Notes: generated from the sequence alone by a model not told the origin. A stretch of DNA of 64,000 nucleotides from an uncultured bacterium (GCA_963840685.1 CAWIZM010000001.1:752286-816285), one strand, 5' to 3'; positions 1,864 through 55,559 are shown, counted from the first letter of the stretch. A program made the numbers and translations.

Positions 1864-2856
1864 ATGAGAAAACAAATTTATATTCTCCCGTTGTTACTCT
1901 TGCTGAGCGTTTACTCTGCGCGATCTATGGAAAATCAAAAAGAATTAGCATTGCTTGTTGAATGTAATAGCAACAATTCGGTATGCCTGTTGCCAACTGA
2001 TATGCTAACCAAAATTATTGCTCATTATTATGATGATAAAGATCAAGTAAAATCTCTCAAGAGCACTATCGCAAACTTTATGAAATTAAGATCAACTTGC
2101 ACAGGTTGGAATAACTTATTAACGTTTGAGAAGATTGGTGATTTTTGTAAAAATTACCCTCAAGTTATCAAAAATGTTCTTTTAGGAGAACTAACCTATT
2201 CCTCTCGCTTGCCTATATTAGTACTAGTTCATGCCAGTATTGAACCGAGCATTGCTTTTCATAAAATAATTAATGCATTGCTTATCACCGTAGTCAGTAA
2301 AAATGATGTGCAATTGATTAGAATATTATTGAAACATATTGCAAAGCCAAAAGATTGCTTAGAAGAGATTAGAACGGTAGAAATAGCACAGATACTTTTT
2401 AACAATGGTGTAGATATACATACAACAGATTATTATGGACGTAACATTTTATGGAAATTGCTTGGTACATCATACCCATCAGATCTCATGAGGTTCTATG
2501 TTGCATGTGGTGTTGATGCAAGGAGACTAGATGGTTCTGGTGATACTTTGTTGCATAGCCTTGCACGTAAGGCATCAAAGATAAGATTTAGTGTCCCCAA
2601 TGAGGTTGATGATTTCTTAAAAAAAGCAGAATTATTGATAACGATGATTCCAGACATGATTAATAAATTTAACTGCCATGGATATGAATATGTTCAATAT
2701 GAAACGTCGCTTGGCATTGCTCAAAAATGTTTGAAAGATATAGCATCCAGTCATCGCTCTTTATGGGACGAAAAAAGAAGTCAAACAGAAGAAATTTTAG
2801 AGATAGAAGCTCTTGAAAAGCTTATTGTATTACTTCAGAAAAATGGTGCGTACTGA
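1864..2856 (+). CDS. Secreted ankyrin-repeat/F-box-like paralogue 1 (C-terminus truncated relative to paralogue 2 by a 2-nt indel)
   Basis: Signal peptide ending SMEN; F-box-like LPTDMLTKII motif; ANK-like GVDIHTTDYYGRNILWKLL and TLLHSLA. aaggag RBS. Paralogous to 2921..3982 etc. Confidence 0.6.
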   Translation: MRKQIYILPLLLLLSVYSARSMENQKELALLVECNSNNSVCLLPTDMLTKIIAHYYDDKDQVKSLKSTIANFMKLRSTCTGWNNLLTFEKIGDFCKNYPQVIKNVLLGELTYSSRLPILVLVHASIEPSIAFHKIINALLITVVSKNDVQLIRILLKHIAKPKDCLEEIRTVEIAQILFNNGVDIHTTDYYGRNILWKLLGTSYPSDLMRFYVACGVDARRLDGSGDTLLHSLARKASKIRFSVPNEVDDFLKKAELLITMIPDMINKFNCHGYEYVQYETSLGIAQKCLKDIASSHRSLWDEKRSQTEEILEIEALEKLIVLLQKNGAY

Positions 2857-2920
2857 CTGCACAGCAACTTGAAGAACAGAAAAATAGTGCAACATAATAA
2901 TTTAGGAGTTAATACATCAG

Positions 2921-3982
2921 ATGCAAAAACTAAATTCTGTTTTTAAGATCTGTATGGTTGTTGTTTTATTGAGTTCTCTGCCTATGCAAGGTATGGAAGA
3001 AGATTGGCAACGTTTCATACAAAATGCCCAAAGATATGATAGTAATGACAGTGATAATCAATTACTTTCATTGCCGATTGAGATGTTGGGCAAAATTGTT
3101 TCTCATCATTTTGATAATCAAGATCTTTACCCTGACCTCAAACTTTTCATGAAGTTAAGTACAGTATGCAAGCATTTTAATAGATTGTTGACGGTTGAGA
3201 CAATTGCTAACTGCTGTAAAAATTATGAACAACATAGAAGAGATTGGGTTTTAAACGATGTATTTAGTGATGAGCGTTTTAAGTATGTGGCAAAACGTTT
3301 ACCACTTTTAATTTTAGTGTGTGCTGGTGCTGATGATTATAAAGGCGAAATGTTTAGCACATGTCTGCAAAAAAATGACCTTGAACTAGTAGAAATGGTA
3401 TTCAAATATTATCCAAGTCAAAATAAAAGAAAAGCGTTAGGACCAAGTTTTTATCGTGTCAAAACAGTAGAAATGGCACAACTGTTTGTTGATAATGATT
3501 GTTTTGATATATATGGTGGTGGTTTTCATCCGGATGGTAAGCTTAATTTGTTATGGAAAATGGTTGATTCAGCATATTCGCTAGAACTGATGGAATTTTG
3601 TGTTAAGCATACTGATTATATAAAAAAATTAGCTCCTTGTGGGGTTGGTTATACGGCTAGCAATTTTTGTTTGTTGCATGCTATTGCACTGGAGTACCAA
3701 TCAGGTTGGATTACAAATCAGAATGATATTGATACTTTTTTGAAAAAAGCAAAATTTCTTCTGAGTATGATTCCAGATATGATAAATGCGACCGGAGCGA
3801 AGAATGAAACACCTCTTGATGTAGCCTATGCTAGCTTAGAAGATTTAAAAGAGACGGTAAGAAAGGGCTATGAAAGTAAAGAAAAAGTTTTAGCATTTGA
3901 ACAACTTATCGCATTATTTCGGGAACATGGTGCATTGACTGCACAGCAACTTGAAGAACAGAAAAATAGTGCAACACAATAA
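2921..3982 (+). CDS. Secreted ankyrin-repeat/F-box-like paralogue 2
   Basis: Signal peptide ending QGMEE; LPIEMLGKIV F-box-like motif; C-terminal HGALTAQQLEEQKNSATQ shared with family. Confidence 0.6.
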   Translation: MQKLNSVFKICMVVVLLSSLPMQGMEEDWQRFIQNAQRYDSNDSDNQLLSLPIEMLGKIVSHHFDNQDLYPDLKLFMKLSTVCKHFNRLLTVETIANCCKNYEQHRRDWVLNDVFSDERFKYVAKRLPLLILVCAGADDYKGEMFSTCLQKNDLELVEMVFKYYPSQNKRKALGPSFYRVKTVEMAQLFVDNDCFDIYGGGFHPDGKLNLLWKMVDSAYSLELMEFCVKHTDYIKKLAPCGVGYTASNFCLLHAIALEYQSGWITNQNDIDTFLKKAKFLLSMIPDMINATGAKNETPLDVAYASLEDLKETVRKGYESKEKVLAFEQLIALFREHGALTAQQLEEQKNSATQ

Positions 3983-4002
3983 TTTAGGAGTTAATACATC
4001 CA

Positions 4003-5169
4003 ATGCAAAAATTGACTTGTATCTTTAATTTTAATCTAATTTGTTTTTCAACCATTTTGTTCAGTGCGTTACCAGTGCAGGGCATGGAAGGAGCTTGGGA
4101 TCAATGTTTGGCAAGACTCGCATTGGTTAATGCTCAACTATGTAAATCATTAATTAATGCCCAAAGGTATGATAGTGATGATATGCCGGAATTAGTTCGA
4201 ATCAGTGATGATGAATTAATAGAAATAAGTAAAAGAAGGAAATTGGGGTTACTTCAATTAGCTAATGCCAAAGCCAAAGTAGAAGAGCTGAAGAATGATA
4301 TAAAAAGTTTCATGAAATTAAGTACCACATGTAAAAGCTGGAACAACTTTTTAACGTTTGAAAGAATTGGTAGCTTCTGTGAACATTATCCGCTAGAGAC
4401 CAAGAATGAAGTTTTACGATATTTGATAGAAAGCTGGGGCAGTAGTTTTGATGGTGAGTGTCGACCTACATTAATATTAATTTGTGCCGGTGCTGATATC
4501 GATACTAATCATCGCGGTAGAAGTGCTCTTAAAAGAGCTGTCTATAAAGATGATGTGCAATTTGCTAAAACATTATTTAGGTATAATGCAAACCCAAATA
4601 TACAAACATATTATACGTTCGTATCTGGATATTTTCCAGTTTTTTTCTGTGCTAACACGGTAGAGATGGTGCAGACATTTATTGAAAATGGCGTAGATAT
4701 ACAAGCAACAGATTTTGCTGGGCTTAATGTTTTATGGCATATTTTGTACAATGAAGGCTCAGCAGATCTGATGAAAGTTTATCTTGAACATGGGGTTGAT
4801 GCTACAAAATTACACCTTGGTGATAATGCTTGCTTATTACATGCCCTGGCGCATAGCTATTATATACCCTATATTGACAATTTCTTACAAAATGCAAATC
4901 TCCTACTCACGGCTATTCCTGGTATGATTAACACATTGGATGAGGATAATCTTACGCCTCTTGACGTTGCTCAAGAATCTTTGAAAGGGCTACAAGAAGA
5001 CGTAGAAGCGGAAAGCGCATTGAAAGACCTACAAGAAGATGGAGAAGAAGATGGAGTGGTGGAAAGCGCATTGGCATTTGAGAAATTTATCGCATTGCTC
5101 CGAGAACGTGGTGGTCTTACTGCGCAAGAACTTGGGATAATAAACATAGTGGAAAAACTTGATCAATAA
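4003..5169 (+). CDS. Secreted ankyrin-repeat paralogue 3
   Basis: Leader ending QGMEG; ANK repeat HRGRSALKRAVYKDDVQFAKTLFRYNANPN; C-terminal RERGGLTAQELG family motif. Confidence 0.6.
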   Translation: MQKLTCIFNFNLICFSTILFSALPVQGMEGAWDQCLARLALVNAQLCKSLINAQRYDSDDMPELVRISDDELIEISKRRKLGLLQLANAKAKVEELKNDIKSFMKLSTTCKSWNNFLTFERIGSFCEHYPLETKNEVLRYLIESWGSSFDGECRPTLILICAGADIDTNHRGRSALKRAVYKDDVQFAKTLFRYNANPNIQTYYTFVSGYFPVFFCANTVEMVQTFIENGVDIQATDFAGLNVLWHILYNEGSADLMKVYLEHGVDATKLHLGDNACLLHALAHSYYIPYIDNFLQNANLLLTAIPGMINTLDEDNLTPLDVAQESLKGLQEDVEAESALKDLQEDGEEDGVVESALAFEKFIALLRERGGLTAQELGIINIVEKLDQ

Positions 5170-5190
5170 GCACAACAAGGGATATTCTTC

Positions 5191-6277
5191 ATGCAGAAAT
5201 TAACGTTTAATTTTAATCTAATCTGTTTTTCAATTTTTTTGCTCAGTGTGATATCTGTGTGGGGCATGGAGGAAGAGATCAAGCATGATGTTACGCCTAT
5301 AGCAGCAAGCACGCGCAGAGGTTATAGTGTTCAGGATTTACTAAAACAATCACGTTATTGTATAGAACCTGAAGGTCTTGATCTAGCAAAAGAACTTACC
5401 ACGACTATTAAAAATTTTATGCGATTACGTGCCACCAGTGAAAGCTGCAATAGATTGTTTACCCCTGAAAAAATCGGTAGTCTTTGCAAAAGTTATCCCC
5501 AGGAGGTTAAGAATAACGTTTTACGCGATTTAGTAGAAAAAAATAGATACAGTATTCAGTATAAAACAAAGCGGCTGCCGATATTGATGTTAGTCTATGC
5601 TGGTGCTCGTGTCAGCGTTAAAATTAATAATAACTCTTTATTTGAAGATGCAATTGCGCACAATGATGTACCATTAATGAAAACATTGTTTAAATATCAC
5701 ACCTATCAAGATCTGACTGCCGGTATAGGGTTAAGGGAAAAGCCAAGTTTTTTTCTTGCCAAAACGGTAGAGATGGCCGAAAATATTCATTAAAAATAAG
5801 GTTAATGTGCATACAGTTTCTTCTGTATCCAAGACTAATATTTTGTGGGAACTCGTTAATGATCAACATTCATCAGAACTTATGGAATTTTATTGTGCAC
5901 ATAAGGTTGATGTGAAAAAGCTACGGCCGAGTGACCATTCTTGCTTGTTGCATAGAATTGCATTGTTTAATTTTTCTTGTTCTCCTTCGTCTATAAAAGG
6001 GCCACGTCCTTCTGATGATTTTGTATGGTCACATGCAGACTTGAGTGATAATTTCCTTAGAAAAGTAACGTTATTGTTGGATGTTATTCCCGGCATGATC
6101 AATGAATTAAATTGTAATAATGAGACACCTTTGGATATTGCTCAGAAGTCTTTAAAAAATGCACAAATGTATGATATTAAGGCAGTTATTGTATTAATCG
6201 ATCAACTTATTTTACTTTTCAGAAAACAGGGTGCTTTGACTGCACGGGAGCTTAAAGAGCAGGCATTGTTGAAATAG
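5191..6277 (+). pseudogene. Ankyrin-repeat paralogue 4, split into two ORFs (5191..5793 and 5807..6277) by a stop plus frame change
   Basis: N-part has the family leader and FMRL..CNRLFTPEKIGSLCKSYP motif. C-part has LLHRIA, TPLDIA and C-terminal QGALTARELKEQ motif. The two parts are in frames 1 and 2. Confidence 0.5.
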
Positions 6278-6308
6278 ATATATTGGTACTAACAAAGGGA
6301 GATTATGT

Positions 6309-7421
6309 ATGCACAAAGTAATTTTTAGTTTTAATATCATCTATATTTCAATTATTTTTTTCAGTGCATTACCAATGCACGGCATGGAGAAAGAGAACTT
6401 GTGTGAACCGTTGTCTGTAGAAGAATCTGATTACGTTGATCATTTTCTTGCATTACCTGGTGAAATACTGCCCGGCATGCAATCACTTGAAGATAGCGTT
6501 AAATTTTTTATGAAATTGAGCACCATACACAAAAAATGGCATGCATTATTGACGTATGAAGAAATTGGTCACCTTTGTAAATACTATTCACAAGATGATA
6601 AAAACCGGGACTTAGTTTGTACATCAAATTTTCTAATTACACACGGCTATACCTCTAAACGTTTGACGCTATTAACTTTAATATGTGCTGGCGCGAATAC
6701 TATAGGACGTATGTTGCTTGAGAGAGCAGTTATTCAAAATGATGTACAATGCGCAGAAATGATATTCAAGTATTATGAAAATCCCAAAGCCTCAATAAAA
6801 GTATTGAGGGATGGTCCAATACATTCCGATAAAAAATTTAATATATTTCCTATAATTTGCAGTATAGAGATTGCATATATACCATTATTATTTGCGGTCA
6901 AAAGCGTAGATATGGCAAAGATATTTATCGCTCATGGCGCAAACATGCATGAAACCATGTACGATGAGACCTCTACAATAGTACAAAATACAGATTATCA
7001 GAATACCAATGTTTTGTGGCACATAATGGACAATAGTTACCCATCAAGCCTCATGGAATTTTATCTTGCACGTCAGGTTGATACAACAAAACTGTGTGTC
7101 TCTTATAAAGGGAACTTGCTGCATAAGTTTGCTGCAACACCGTATTCAGGTAATATAAGCAGTCTTGATAACTTTATACAAAAAGCAAAACTATTGCTTA
7201 CTACCCTTCCTGCTCAAATTAATGCGTTGAATCAACGTGATCAAACGCCGCTCAATATCGTTAAAAAATCTTTGAGAGCTTTAAAGAAAAGTAAAAACGT
7301 TGCAGCAAAGTTAGCTTTTAAGGTGCTTATTGAATTATTTCAGGAGCATGGTGGTTTTGTGGCAGAAGATCTTAATCGGCTTGCGAATTCTAAATGGATG
7401 AGTCAGCAAAGTTCAATGTAA
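6309..7421 (+). CDS. Secreted ankyrin-repeat/F-box-like paralogue 5
   Basis: Leader ending HGMEKE; LPGEILPGM; FMKLSTIHKKWHALLTYEEIGHLCKYY family motif; ANK-like repeats; C-terminal QEHGGFVAEDL. Confidence 0.6.
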   Translation: MHKVIFSFNIIYISIIFFSALPMHGMEKENLCEPLSVEESDYVDHFLALPGEILPGMQSLEDSVKFFMKLSTIHKKWHALLTYEEIGHLCKYYSQDDKNRDLVCTSNFLITHGYTSKRLTLLTLICAGANTIGRMLLERAVIQNDVQCAEMIFKYYENPKASIKVLRDGPIHSDKKFNIFPIICSIEIAYIPLLFAVKSVDMAKIFIAHGANMHETMYDETSTIVQNTDYQNTNVLWHIMDNSYPSSLMEFYLARQVDTTKLCVSYKGNLLHKFAATPYSGNISSLDNFIQKAKLLLTTLPAQINALNQRDQTPLNIVKKSLRALKKSKNVAAKLAFKVLIELFQEHGGFVAEDLNRLANSKWMSQQSSM

Positions 7422-10242: not shown

Positions 10243-11826
10243 ATGAAACGTTTTTATCAATTATTGTTTGTTGTTGCTGCTTTGGTAAGTGGCACTGTGT
10301 ATGGCATGGAAGTAAATATTAGGGATGCTGATTATGCTGGTCTTATGACGTATCTGAGGGCGAACGGTTATAATTTTAGTGAAGAACAACCATATGAGTA
10401 TGAAGCAAATGCATCTAAGGTGTTACCTGACATAGAAACATTTCTCTTTGCAAATGCAGAACAACAGAATGACTCGTATGTTCAATTATGCATATCTTAT
10501 TTAAATCATTGTTTTTCATCAACTGAATGCAAACCAGAAACTATTGAAGAAATGCTCAGAGCGCGTTTTACTGGTAATTCAGCAAAAGCATTGTTCTATG
10601 CTCCTTATAGACAATTCATGGTTGGGCAGTTGCAATTGGATAAATTGTATCCAGCTATAGAGGCTATTTGTAAGTCAAAAGATATTGATGCAATTTTAGG
10701 TTGGCTATCAATATTTGATGGTATAGATAATTCATGTGAAGTAATGCTTGTTGATCAAGGACTTAGCAAGGTAATAGCGCCTAAAAAGGGAAATGTGATT
10801 GCAATGAGTCCAGAAGAGCATTCATTGTTGCAAAAGGCTAATCATTTACAAGGACGCGGTAAAGCGTTTATTGATACACTGCGCGAGCAAGATCAAAAAG
10901 ACAAAAATGAGCGTCAACAGTTACGTGCAAATGCAGAAAAAAGAAAAGACAACATAGCTGGGCAAATATTTAATGCTCTTAAGCCAAATCAAGAGGCTCG
11001 CTTAGATCAGTTACTGCAAGATGAGTTAATTGGTGATGATGCGCCATTAGGTGAATATCGTGATTTTATTAATGCTGAAATTCAAAAAAGAATAAACGCC
11101 CCTAGGGTAAAAGCAGAAGATCGTGTAGTGCTATTAAACACATGGAACGCTAAGTTTGCTGCATTACCTGTTCAGGTAAAGCCAGAACCGGTGATAATTC
11201 CAGTGATAATTATTGATAATAAGCCACAACAACCGTTAAATCATAATCAAAATAATAATATTCCTAACAATCCAAGCATAGTTTTTCCTTGTGTAGGAGC
11301 AACCTTTTTATTTAATAAAGATGGGAGTCCGTTATCATCTAAAAACCTTGATGATTATCCAGATGGATATGATAAAGATGGCAACAAGATGGTATGGGAT
11401 GATTCTATTAAGAAATATATATTCGAAGGGCAACAACGAAGCGTTACTGAAAAACCAGAAGAACCAAAAGTAGAGTTACCTCAACAACCGCCTCAACAAC
11501 CAAACCAACCAAATGTAGATGGTCAGCCACAGCAACCAGTGCCAAATGCACCAAAAGGCATAGCTGCACTATTCGCGGCAATTACCGCACCTAGATTAGT
11601 AGTTGCGGCAGTTGTGGTGGGTGTATGTTATTGGGGTTACACTAAATATCAAGATTATAAAGCAGTTGAATCCTCCTCCGCCAAGGCTTCGGCGGACAAG
11701 GAATCCTCCTTCGCTAAAGCTACGGCGGACAGGGAAGCTGCAGCTGAGCAAAACAAGCAAAGTAAACAACGCATGCATAAGCAGCAACCAGTGCGCAAAC
11801 CGGTACATAAAAAGCGCACACGCTAA
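10243..11826 (+). CDS. Secreted Pro/Gln-rich protein with a C-terminal TM anchor and basic tail. It contains an in-frame GC-rich repeat insertion
   Basis: Leader ending VYGMEV; PQQP repeats; TM LVVAAVVVGVCYWGY; GC-rich segment at 11655..11725 encoding SSSAKASADKESSFAKATADREAAAEQ. Confidence 0.5.
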   Translation: MKRFYQLLFVVAALVSGTVYGMEVNIRDADYAGLMTYLRANGYNFSEEQPYEYEANASKVLPDIETFLFANAEQQNDSYVQLCISYLNHCFSSTECKPETIEEMLRARFTGNSAKALFYAPYRQFMVGQLQLDKLYPAIEAICKSKDIDAILGWLSIFDGIDNSCEVMLVDQGLSKVIAPKKGNVIAMSPEEHSLLQKANHLQGRGKAFIDTLREQDQKDKNERQQLRANAEKRKDNIAGQIFNALKPNQEARLDQLLQDELIGDDAPLGEYRDFINAEIQKRINAPRVKAEDRVVLLNTWNAKFAALPVQVKPEPVIIPVIIIDNKPQQPLNHNQNNNIPNNPSIVFPCVGATFLFNKDGSPLSSKNLDDYPDGYDKDGNKMVWDDSIKKYIFEGQQRSVTEKPEEPKVELPQQPPQQPNQPNVDGQPQQPVPNAPKGIAALFAAITAPRLVVAAVVVGVCYWGYTKYQDYKAVESSSAKASADKESSFAKATADREAAAEQNKQSKQRMHKQQPVRKPVHKKRTR

Positions 11827-14166: not shown

Positions 14167-15258
14167 ATGCTGGAACTGAGAGAAGTTGTTTACGTTGATG
14201 CGGTACCGACTGGTATTGAATGCATCCTTGGCGCAGATATTGGCGGCACTAACAGTAATTTTGGTTTCTTTCGCCCTCCTTCGCTGAAGATACGGCAGGC
14301 AGGTCGGCAGACAGGTTTAGGGGAAGAACATCTTGAACTCCTCTTTTCTGTGCACGCAAAGAGTCAGTTGGTTACTGATTTTACGGCGCTCGTTAAACAG
14401 ATATTGGAATATGTTCATGCCAAATACAAAATTGAAGTTAAGTACTCGGCCTTTGCCGCTGCGGGTGTGGTGTCAGAGCATCAAGATTATGTAAAGCCGA
14501 CTAATTTACCTATAGTCGTCGATTCTAAAGAAATATTAAAACAAACTCATCTCCATTGTGCGTTTATTGTGAATGATTTTGAAGTTATTGGTTATGGAGT
14601 AGATAGTATAGATCCTAAAGATTTGGTGTTGGTTAATGCGGGTGTTCCGCGTGCACAGGCAAACAGGGCAATTGTAGGTGCTGGTACTGGCTTTGGAAAA
14701 TGTATTATGATTTGGGATCGGCAATTGGGTCGTCATATTCCTTCTGCATCTGAAGGAGGACATGCAGATTTTGCGCCATACAATTTATTAGAAATGGATT
14801 TGGTTAATTATATTAAAAAAGAGAGACAAGGAAATTGCGCGGTATCATGGGAAGATCTACTTTCTGGCGATGGAATTCGGCTTATTTATTGTTTTTTCCG
14901 TGCGCGGGCACAGGATGAGTCTGCAGCGCATCAACCACCTCAAGCAGATGATATATTCAAGGCTCGCAAACAAGATGCCCATGCATATGCTACGTTTAAA
15001 TTATATGCAAAAATATATGCGCGGTGTGCTAAAAATTTTGCATTAGATGCATTAGCGTTAGGTGGTGTGTACATTGCTGGTGGTATTGCAGCAAAAAACT
15101 TGCCACTTTTTGAAAAAGATATTTTTATGACATCTTTTATCAATTGTGGCAAGCAACAAGAGCTACTTAAAGAGGTGCCAATCTACGTTATCACTGACTA
15201 TAACGTGAGTTTGTATGGCGTTGCTGAATACATGCTCATTGAGGGCATGTGTGGATAG
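14167..15258 (+). CDS. glk: Glucokinase (Glk family) carrying an in-frame GC-rich repeat-derived insertion just after the ATP-binding GGTN motif
   Basis: aaggag RBS then ATG 14167; LGADIGGTNSNFGFF matches the Glk N-terminal motif. Inserted loop RPPSLKIRQAGRQTGLGEEHLELL is encoded by GC-rich DNA at 14262..14345 homologous to the intergenic repeats. Confidence 0.7.
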   Translation: MLELREVVYVDAVPTGIECILGADIGGTNSNFGFFRPPSLKIRQAGRQTGLGEEHLELLFSVHAKSQLVTDFTALVKQILEYVHAKYKIEVKYSAFAAAGVVSEHQDYVKPTNLPIVVDSKEILKQTHLHCAFIVNDFEVIGYGVDSIDPKDLVLVNAGVPRAQANRAIVGAGTGFGKCIMIWDRQLGRHIPSASEGGHADFAPYNLLEMDLVNYIKKERQGNCAVSWEDLLSGDGIRLIYCFFRARAQDESAAHQPPQADDIFKARKQDAHAYATFKLYAKIYARCAKNFALDALALGGVYIAGGIAAKNLPLFEKDIFMTSFINCGKQQELLKEVPIYVITDYNVSLYGVAEYMLIEGMCG

Positions 15259-17889: not shown

Positions 17890-19032
17890 TTAATCTGCAA
17901 CATATTCTTTTACCGGTTCTATGAGGATGCTGCTTATATCAAACAATTCAACTTTACCATGAGATTGTACTGTTTTTAATGCAATAGTATTTGCAACGAA
18001 AACTTTTTCAAAATTGCTTGTTTGAACCCTATCCAAGGCATTATTGGAGAGTACTGGATGCACAAAATAACCAAAAACATGTTGCGCTCCTCTTTCTACC
18101 AATGCATCACATACCTGTAATGCGGTACCGCCAGTATCAATCATATCATCAACAATTATTGCGGTGGGCGTACTGAGTTCGCCAGACATACTCATAATTG
18201 CGGTCTTGTTTTGCGCATACCGATTTTTTGTGAAATATATGGTGTTACTATTTAGTTTTTGCGCAATGGTATGAGCGCGATCATATGCACCTTTGTCCAC
18301 CGCAATTAATGATACACCGTGCGATAGATCGATGTGCTCTCTAATATGTTGGGTGATGAGGTCAAGAGGAGAGAGTGAATGGAAGGGGATAGTGAAAAAG
18401 TTTTTGAGTACTGGTGTATGTGCTTCAATGGTCACTACTTGGTCGATACCTGCGTTTTGAAGCAATTGTGCGACAACGTGTGCAGGGCCAAATTTGCCAG
18501 GAATACGGCTCTTTTCTTGTCGTGAATAACCAAAATAAGGAATGATAGCAGTAATTTTTGTGCATCCGGTATTTTTAAGTTCATGCGCTAAAAATGCAAC
18601 ATGCATAATCTGTTCCTGTGGGGAGGGATAGGTTGTTTGAATAATAATGGCATGTTTGTTTAGCCAAAAATTAGCATCTTTATCTGTCTCTTTAAGGGTG
18701 ACTTCTGTTTCGCCGTCAGAAAACCGTGTAACTTGTGCATGATGCAAGTACTTATCAAAATGCTCAACAAGGGAGAGTCCTATGCTTGAGGTATCGAGGG
18801 CTATAAATTCAAAACCGTCTTTACTTTCTGAGCAATCAATCATTTCTTGAGAATTATTTTTGCTTTCTGTAAAGCTTCCGCTATCTACTGCATATGGCAA
18901 AGAATATGGATATGCTGGATTGTCTTTGTTTGTTTGATTTACATCGAGCATGCCTACAAGATTTCCGTTGAGCGTTAGGAGTATGAGTGCGAGGTGTGAT
19001 ATGAAGAAGTTTTTCATGAGCAGCTCTTTCAA
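17890..19032 (-). CDS. prs: Ribose-phosphate pyrophosphokinase paralogue 2 with an about 75-aa N-terminal extension carrying a signal peptide
   Basis: Full-length Prs homology (RFSDGE, IPYFGYSRQE, IVDDMIDTGGT) preceded by MKELLMKNFFISHLALILLTLNGNLVGM leader. Confidence 0.8.
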   Translation of the reverse strand: MKELLMKNFFISHLALILLTLNGNLVGMLDVNQTNKDNPAYPYSLPYAVDSGSFTESKNNSQEMIDCSESKDGFEFIALDTSSIGLSLVEHFDKYLHHAQVTRFSDGETEVTLKETDKDANFWLNKHAIIIQTTYPSPQEQIMHVAFLAHELKNTGCTKITAIIPYFGYSRQEKSRIPGKFGPAHVVAQLLQNAGIDQVVTIEAHTPVLKNFFTIPFHSLSPLDLITQHIREHIDLSHGVSLIAVDKGAYDRAHTIAQKLNSNTIYFTKNRYAQNKTAIMSMSGELSTPTAIIVDDMIDTGGTALQVCDALVERGAQHVFGYFVHPVLSNNALDRVQTSNFEKVFVANTIALKTVQSHGKVELFDISSILIEPVKEYVAD

Positions 19033-19119: not shown

Positions 19120-19275
19120 CTTGGAATTAGAAAATTAAAAAGCCCGTTCGCCCTGAGCTTGTCGAAGGGTACGGGCCTATGCTTCGACCCAGCCTTCGTT
19201 AAAACTTCGGCGGGCACGGCAGGCTGAGGCCATGGTCCGACGTAGCCTATCAGCACGAACGGCCTAGAATAATTA
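19120..19275. repeat. GC-rich palindromic intergenic repeat element (family member)
   Basis: ccctgagcttgtcgaagg / ccttcg... arms; shares segments with 20733..20805, 26885..26965 (reverse orientation) and 41640..41770. Confidence 0.7.
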
Positions 19276-41639: not shown

Positions 41640-41770
41640 TAAGTGCTGAGAATGGCTGCATTCTTTGTCTTCGGTGACATTGATGCGGCCTGTCCTTCGT
41701 AGCCTTGCCGTGCCCGCCATAGCTTTTAGCGAAGGCTGGGGCGAAGTAGGGCCAGTTTTGTTTTCAAGCT
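41640..41770. repeat. GC-rich palindromic repeat element
   Basis: gccgtgcccgccatagcttttagcgaaggctgggg shared with 61125..61235 and the reverse complement of 19195..19235. Confidence 0.7.
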
Positions 41771-55081: not shown

Positions 55082-55183
55082 TATTAAACCTTTATCGTTA
55101 AAGGGCTATTTTTCTTAGGTAACAAGAGATAGAAAATACTATAACACAGTGCAGAAAATCTTCAATATATAGCATTCCAAGTA

Positions 55184-55333
55184 GTCGTTGCGAGCTTGCG
55201 AAGCAATCCAGGCTAATCATTTATGCTGTATTGTTAGATGCTGCTGTTAATTTTGATTTAAATTTTTTATTTTTTTGTTAGCTGCTGGTTGGTTTATAGT
55301 TTTTCCTGGATTGCTTCGCAAGCTCGCAACGAC
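55184..55333. repeat. MITE-like element: perfect 29-bp terminal inverted repeats flanking an AT-rich 92-bp core
   Basis: gtcgttgcgagcttgcgaagcaatccagg (55184..55212) is the exact reverse complement of 55305..55333. Confidence 0.75.
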
Positions 55334-55559
55334 GGCGACTAGAGGCTATTTTCTTCGAAATTGTAAGCGTATAATCATAATGCATTGTCAGCACGAACGG
55401 CTTATAATAATGCGTTATGTTTGCTTGCTCCACGCTTGTCAAAATTAGTTGTTTGTGCAACTATACTATCTACTTATCAAACGCACATAAGAACCAAAAT
55501 AAACACATATAAGAATCAAAAAAACGTACATAAGAACCAACATTCGCTAAGGAATTTTT

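Follow-up and report, generated by a model that had tools for sequence, protein, structure and literature searches.

Introduction

The incorporation of dispersed repeats into protein-coding genes is best known from Rickettsia. Insertion in frame is the hallmark of its palindromic elements, RPE-1 to RPE-10 (Ogata et al. 2000, 2002), as reviewed in PMC10969869. The same source describes ERIC, a sequence of approximately 127 bp confined to Enterobacteria, and other small mobile sequences of enterobacteria as nominally intergenic, occasionally falling in ORFs where they give rise to peptides (Delihas 2007). A further class is formed by REPs, which Di Nocera, De Gregorio and Rocco (2013) surveyed in more than 80 species and sorted into GTAG- and CGTC-tagged superfamilies (PMC3733652). 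In their account, REPs are GC-rich stem-loops of 20-40 bp located mostly just downstream of ORFs and often arranged as inverted dimers or clusters. Some families occur in several species, and intragenic REPs encode extra residues in tRNA synthetase and repair genes. RPE-4 and RPE-6 are equated with CGTC REPs, for which no transposase is known (PMC3733652). Lastly, the intracellular bacterium Coxiella burnetii has small repeats, QMITE1 and QMITE2, that lengthen ORFs or interrupt them in frame; the small form of QMITE2 is a REP and is also present in Bradyrhizobium, Rhodobacter and Lacimicrobium (Wachter et al. 2018, PMC5896051).

Here, a comparable event is described for a glucokinase gene (glk) within a 64-kb stretch of bacterial DNA, referred to as the window. 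Within the reach of sequence comparison and a structural model, the analysis confirmed that a REP-like hairpin, now decayed, has been inserted in frame and tolerated in a predicted surface loop of an apparently functional enzyme. A phenomenon best known in Rickettsia is thereby extended to Dependentiae. The case is clean and datable, with repeat DNA turned into protein sequence in a central metabolic enzyme and the empty site present in the orthologues. The original prediction had treated such colonisation as the mark of rickettsial elements and as new for this kind of genome. Since REPs in the genes of many bacteria (PMC3733652) and QMITEs (PMC5896051) have already been catalogued, the novelty narrows to Dependentiae and to this repeat family, for neither of which a description was found.

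The insertion in glucokinase

The features discussed below are collected in Table 1. The glk ORF is identified as a glucokinase by Pfam (PF02685, E = 1.6e-68). Among the 4445 homologues found, the nearest named ones belong to Candidatus Dependentiae/Babeliales and, judged by sequence, the window genome is Dependentiae-like. An AlphaFold model built from 24 sequences has a mean pLDDT of 87.6 and superimposes on E. coli Glk (1sz2) with TM scores of 0.78/0.88.

Near the N-terminus, glk contains codons that are missing from all 23 orthologues in the protein alignment. At the DNA level, the four closest orthologues (80-87 % identical) have exactly 42 nt fewer. The segment is therefore an insertion rather than ancestral Glk sequence. 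Three of these four have enough flanking sequence to be compared and share the thioredoxin-glk (trx-glk) neighbourhood; in one of the three, glk is also followed on its 3' side by a phosphoribosyltransferase gene as in the window. Where the orthologues read NSNFGFFRRxNGxLELLFS, the window protein reads NSNFGFFRPPSLKIRQAGRQTGLGEEHLELLFS (24-sequence alignment). Both the R of FFR and the LELL that flank the insert are ancestral, and therefore the roughly 24 codons first proposed (14262-14345) proved too wide and shrink to a net gain of 14. The in-frame insertion itself stands: the frame is preserved and Glk homology resumes at the ancestral LELL. The junctions are ambiguous by about 8 nt. With a GC content of 61 %, the segment differs markedly from the window at approximately 38 %.

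In the AlphaFold model, residues 37-56 lie between strands E29-36 and E57-65, so that the insert would occupy the turn of the beta2-beta3 hairpin of the N-terminal domain. Residues 41-52 are predicted with pLDDT below 50 while the fold around the loop is confident. The surface exposure expected of a tolerated insertion is thus found in the model, and such a placement appears compatible with the Glk fold.

Dependentiae-type bacteria are reduced and host-dependent, and metabolic genes are often lost from them. Because the window appears to come from a host of this type and only about 10 residues separate the insert from the phosphate-1 motif (DIGGTN) ahead of it, it could be supposed that the insertion was disabling and that glk is becoming a pseudogene. 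The gene itself makes this very unlikely. Outside the insert, glk is under strong purifying selection, with a dN/dS of 0.074-0.082 at a dS of 0.69-1.05 relative to three insert-free orthologues, although this value of approximately 0.08 is averaged across the whole divergence (dS ~0.7-1.0) and not over the time since insertion alone. Stops and frameshifts are absent, all invariant residues of the Glk family are retained in the 24-sequence alignment and the modelled chain folds confidently around the loop. What is observed in glk is an in-frame insertion in an otherwise conserved coding gene.

Two other accounts of the extra codons concern the DNA itself. Assemblers can be misled by short GC-rich repeats, and a repeat-bearing read might have been collapsed into glk by an assembly or sequencing error. 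Almost no credence can be given to such an artefact, as the reading frame is intact and a nucleotide-identical glk, insert included, is present in 4 other assemblies from separate samples (Logan and JGI contigs). An intein, an intron or recoding can be set aside, since 42 nt is far too short for any known self-splicing element and the frame is open.

Table 1. Coordinates of glk, its insert and the copies of the repeat in the window
Feature	Position	Strand	Description
glk (glucokinase) ORF	14167-15258	+	363 aa from ATG at 14167; intact, under purifying selection
Segment without counterpart in orthologues	14274-14329	+	56 nt versus 14 nt in orthologues; net +42 nt = 14 codons; reads PPSLKIRQAGRQTGLGEEH
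Repeat core inside glk	14275-14303	+	CCTCC TTCGCTGAAGATACGGCAGGC AGG; hairpin motif in decayed form
12-nt tandem duplication of the 3' half of the repeat	14293-14316	+	CGGCAGGCAGGT / CGGCAGACAGGT, 11/12 identical
Two tandem 33-nt copies	11668-11733	+	Inside ORF 10243-11826, in another frame (ESSSAKASADK ESSFAKATADR)
Intergenic copy	19186-19218	+	In GC-rich cluster 19140-19264, ending 14 nt downstream of the pth stop
Intergenic copy	26921-26953	+	In GC-rich tract 26903-26965
Intergenic copy, one indel	41706-41746	-	In tract 41681-41758, which starts 43 nt downstream of the aspS stop
Inverted pair of copies	61149-61174 and 61190-61218	- and +	6 nt downstream of the gatB stop, upstream of tpiA

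The insert as a copy of a dispersed repeat

The glk insert belongs to a repeat family that is represented in the window by 9 units at 6 loci within 64 kb, counts that are small. Repeat finding groups 14275-14303 with copies at 11672/11705, 19190, 26925 and 61190. In direct comparison, the glk copy is identical to 11705-11733 at 25/29 positions and to the reverse complement of 61149-61174, its closest relative, at 22/26. A nearly base-for-base resemblance had been claimed; the match is significant, but with approximately 85 % identity that wording was slightly generous. As a pattern, the 26-mer (up to 3 mismatches) has 3 matches in the window compared to 0 in 100 shuffles, and the 21-mer has 6 compared to 0.07 expected. 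In a formal alignment, a leave-one-out nhmmer profile made from the 7 other window copies, with the glk copy excluded, finds 14274-14303 at E = 8.8e-4, and this is the sole match outside the training set above the inclusion threshold.

These figures bear upon the simplest competing account, namely that the loop grew in this lineage by slippage and point mutation and that its similarity to the repeat is a coincidence of GC-rich low complexity. Part of the insert is indeed a local 12-nt tandem duplication, and two orthologues (P0068 and P0075) have unrelated loop expansions elsewhere in Glk, these being large inserts at a different site that are neither GC-rich nor derived from the window repeat. 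An over-tight external profile also scores the glk copy at only E = 5.6. Yet coincidence would have to produce matches to specific copies, the exclusive profile match and the absence of shuffle matches, all in a segment of 61 % GC within a 38 % GC genome, and loop growth of this kind is highly improbable. As for the external profile, it was made from 121 exact-match foreign copies, and because selection by an exact pattern leaves 18 of its columns invariant, it was rejected as a fair test and replaced by the local leave-one-out profile. The glk copy departs from the cross-phylum consensus at 4/21 core positions.

Within the family, the glk copy and the minus-strand copy at 61149-61174 have the derived states GCTGAAG and GGCAGG in common, which suggests that the insert came from a subfamily residing in this genome. 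ORF 10243-11826 reads the repeat as SSFAKATADR, and glk reads it one frame over as PSLKIRQAG; because the frames differ, the likeness is one of DNA and not of protein. Tandem amplification of the 3' half is not peculiar to glk and is also seen in arrays of foreign genomes, such as L046 and L086, where the unit is 11 nt and CGGCGGACAAGT-like.

All four intergenic loci are located 6-43 nt after a stop codon (pth, an unnamed ORF, aspS and gatB) and have gene neighbours on the same strand. The unnamed ORF is 26973-28109(-), and the tract 26903-26965 ends 8 nt downstream of its stop. Apart from the inverted pair beside gatB, a weaker one is formed by 19186-19218(+) and a partial copy at 19229-19248(-), the partner scoring E = 0.43; the surrounding cluster, 19140-19264, is mixed with other repeat families. 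Only two of the six loci are intragenic even though long ORFs cover approximately 87 % of the window. This scarcity fits the depletion expected if selection purges most intragenic insertions. At the other intragenic locus, the second tandem copy contains the exact 21-mer found across phyla, and orthologues of ORF 10243 in other Dependentiae have copies of the DNA motif at different positions in the protein.

A side observation relates to the annotation of the gatB-tpiA interval. The longest triose-phosphate isomerase ORF, 60342-61202 (-), starts within the inverted repeat pair. As Pfam recognises TIM only from residue 37 onwards, tpiA probably starts further downstream, leaving the repeats in the spacer.

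The canonical hairpin and its distribution

The canonical core can be written TCCNCC-TTCGCYAARGCTWC-GGNGGA and spans approximately 27-30 nt. Its consensus forms a hairpin in which a 3x3 internal loop separates an outer stem of 6 bp from a mini-stem of 3 bp with AA at its tip. In 121 copies, positions 6:9 covary as C:G (81), T:A (37) and mixed (3), independently of other variable sites. For the outer-stem pair -2:17, a metagenome scan in which both members of the pair were left free returned G:C 57, T:A 24, A:T 8, C:G 3, G:T 3, T:G 1 and 27 non-pairs; the 24 T:A pairs compare with 8.2 expected under independence. Covariation at two stem positions therefore supports the canonical element as a hairpin. 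The palindromic character initially attributed to the sequence thus applies to the family consensus. The glk copy lacks it: only 4/6 outer and 2/3 inner pairs are left and the DNA fold z-score is +0.51 relative to shuffles.

Outside the window, an exact scan for TTCGCYAARGCTWCGGCGGAC with one genome per species gave at least 120 matches, where our estimate of chance is about 2-4. Listed matches come from Bradyrhizobium, Acidobacteriota, Verrucomicrobiota, Bacteroidota, Planctomycetota and Elusimicrobia as well as Bdellovibrio, Nitrospirae, Rickettsiales, Saccharibacteria and Roizmanbacteria, placing the exact canonical core in about a dozen phyla among those listed. Between genomes, the flanks are unrelated apart from a conserved TCC(G)CC that precedes the core and an A(A/G)G that follows. 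Viral contigs contain 31 core matches compared to 0 for a reversed-sequence control. No match to the core was found in 5,426 E. coli genomes or 72,556 PLSDB plasmids, and derivation from a universal RNA or gene was rejected on that basis.

The motif is open in 4-6 of its 6 reading frames. Among Pfam-confirmed genes of unrelated foreign genomes, the 21-mer occurs in frame in those for PheT, a DUF255 protein, a P-type ATPase, RlmN, a glycosyltransferase, GlnRS and LptC, with copies in several frames and both orientations. The copy in RlmN corresponds to a 7-residue gap in a solved homologue, the sole foreign case with such a gap. The GlnRS copy (L071) aligns to E. coli GlnRS without one, the motif replacing native sequence at unchanged length, so not every intragenic copy is a simple insertion.

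Some individual loci are of interest in their own right. In a low-GC genome (L102), PheT contains the in-frame motif together with an NlpC/P60 domain between B3_4 and B5. At L078, a single open frame of 575 codons links a class I/II aminotransferase to a CobQ-like domain through a stretch with the motif (STFAKATADR). This arrangement may be a repeat-mediated gene fusion or, alternatively, two genes with a lost stop codon. In a Rikenellaceae MAG (L037), the motif ends 3 nt before a sequence resembling the 5' end of a tRNA gene (GGGGAATTAGCTCAGTTGG...).

Turning to mobility, a search for a transposase, target-site duplication or terminal inverted repeat found none. All-against-all BLAST of 2400 ORFs from 120 motif loci also gave no recurrent neighbour, the largest shared family reaching 6/120. 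Mobility is judged from copy number and distribution only. A repeat with an exact core across distant bacteria, covariation and no obvious mobilising gene provides a broader lead than the glk insert. We raise tentatively, as a possibility with the odds somewhat against it, that the copies represent an undescribed, untagged REP-like superfamily whose core of about 27 nt is preserved nearly base for base in about a dozen phyla, Bradyrhizobium, Acidobacteriota, Saccharibacteria and Dependentiae among them, and some viral contigs, and repeatedly lands in frame in housekeeping genes, in any frame and orientation, with no linked transposase. If so, either the hairpin would be copied or maintained by a host factor of very wide occurrence, or an element of 30 nt would have spread rampantly by horizontal transfer. 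It would also raise the question of how REP-like sequences arise and spread when no dedicated transposase accompanies them, and the core would offer a simple marker for repeat-derived protein loops in metagenomes.

Comparison with described repeat families

In its behaviour, the window repeat is like an intragenic REP or RPE, and it falls outside the named families. The resemblance to RPEs is that of a dispersed repeat of an intracellular-type host which is found in frame in a housekeeping enzyme, adds a surface segment compatible with the fold and decays after insertion. The analogy drawn originally is apt to that extent. As an element, however, the repeat is a REP-like sequence of about 30 nt and not an RPE of 100-150 bp. 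RPE-1 measures approximately 100-150 bp and contributes 30-50 residues, whereas the glk insert adds 42 nt (14 aa) around a core of about 30 nt. RPEs are known from the single genus Rickettsia, while the glk repeat resides in a host of another phylum and its core is spread across many. Unlike in RPEs, the frame in which the glk repeat is read varies between genes. Concerning the hairpin, the glk-repeat consensus has covariation support, but the glk copy itself folds no better than shuffles. Neither Rfam nor any other match connects this repeat with rickettsial elements, and the two are set apart here by host and length.

Like REPs, the window repeat is a short, GC-rich, imperfect palindrome present in many copies, with a core of approximately 27-30 nt. 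It favours the 3' end of the upstream ORF and occurs in inverted dimers and clusters, that is, in REPIN-like arrangements. It differs by having no unpaired GTAG or CGTC (TGTC/CCTC) end. In the 121 copies, positions -8 to -6 are unconserved and the 3' flank is A-A/G-G; a TGTC on the reverse strand has two of its bases inside the stem, and GTAG is internal only and confined to the W=A variant. Unlike the REPs of PMC3733652, the hairpin has two stems split by a 3x3 internal loop. The supplements of that paper, in which Dependentiae are not covered, contain neither the window motif nor the peptides FAKA and LRRT.

Full-length QMITEs, at about 190 bp or more, possess terminal inverted and direct repeats, overlap mostly the 3' ends of ORFs and differ in sequence from the window repeat. 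Nevertheless, the occurrence of QMITE2 in distant lineages offers a precedent for the sharing of such repeats (PMC5896051). ERIC is unlike the window repeat in sequence and structure. MITEs in general are defined by TIRs, a target-site duplication and a length of approximately 100-400 bp, in contrast to an element of about 30 nt. At the glk junctions, no direct repeat is evident, and flanks are unconserved between copies.

Rfam gave no matches in the window at gathering thresholds. Its E-value scan returned below-threshold matches to other repeats of the window only and none for the glk repeat family, and it does not cover the compound elements of Bradyrhizobium either. Literature searches yielded no relevant report of the repeat's DNA strings, of the peptides that it encodes or of Dependentiae repeats.

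Proposed history and fate of the insert

The evidence makes it probable that a REP-like hairpin repeat was copied at the DNA level into the turn of glk, acquired a 12-nt duplication, was tolerated and has since decayed. The order of events given here is a reconstruction. A copy of the GC-rich hairpin repeat from the resident subfamily would have entered the codons of the beta2-beta3 turn, and slippage would then have duplicated 12 nt of the 3' half of the repeat to bring the net gain to 42 nt. The allele would have survived because its length is a multiple of three, its frame is free of stops and it lies in a predicted disordered surface loop away from the active site. Thereafter, the hairpin would have decayed while the rest of Glk was kept under strong purifying selection. 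With a decayed hairpin in an enzyme under purifying selection, the insert is best seen as tolerated selfish or junk DNA that extends a loop by 14 residues. The insert is presumably translated, and its effect on fitness would be neutral or slightly harmful. As for how the repeat moves, our best guess is copying that depends on a single-stranded hairpin, either through an HUH-type enzyme acting in trans or by template switching. A TTCGCC microhomology is present at the left junction of the insert.

Alternatively, the insert may have been co-opted. Its basic, flexible loop (K, R, R) could serve a new interaction or some form of regulation, or else an mRNA hairpin close to the 5' end could modulate translation. 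The loop is charged and lies about 110 nt from the start codon, and a role as RNA elements has been ascribed to REPs in certain contexts (PMC3733652). Against such a role, the hairpin of the glk copy is precisely what has decayed, and the loop occurs in no second species among the aligned orthologues. Moreover, intragenic copies elsewhere are read in several frames and both orientations, a pattern that speaks against any specific function of the peptide. Co-option is thus unlikely, and toleration is the reading preferred here.

Other repeats and duplications in the window

The window harbors two further GC-rich repeat families. A second repeat, CGTCGTTGCGAGCTTGCGAAGCAATCCAGG, forms a perfect 29-nt inverted pair (55184-55212 / 55305-55333) within 55164-55349 and is built like a dimer of CGTC-tagged REPs (PMC3733652). 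It has a below-threshold Rfam match to Wolbachia sRNA 46 (WsnRNA46, E = 2e-5). In Bradyrhizobium, the glk-type hairpin is nested within a repeat of this second type. The third family, GTTCGCCCTGAGCTTGTCGAAGGG, occurs at 19140-19170, 20736-20799 and 20731-20885. Its below-threshold match to Aggregatibacter sRNA 41 (E = 1.3e-8) suggests that certain sRNA families in Rfam are in fact repeats of wide distribution.

The pth gene is flanked by two paralogues of prs (17890-19032 and 19811-20731), approximately 78 % identical over 300 nt, and related contigs (L011 and L285) have a single prs beside it. Inverted repeats of 31 nt with 97 % complementarity (19140-19170 / 20769-20799) enclose the pth-prs2 segment. 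The clusters of repeats around pth-prs2 may delimit a duplication or rearrangement.

Lastly, 1864-7421 contains five paralogous genes in tandem, spaced at roughly 1.1 kb (repeat families D4, D6, D7, D9 and D12-D14), an array typical of an expanded effector-like family. Three more tandem paralogues (D1, D3, D5 and D8) are found at 21631-24997 (-), with 63-83 % identity.
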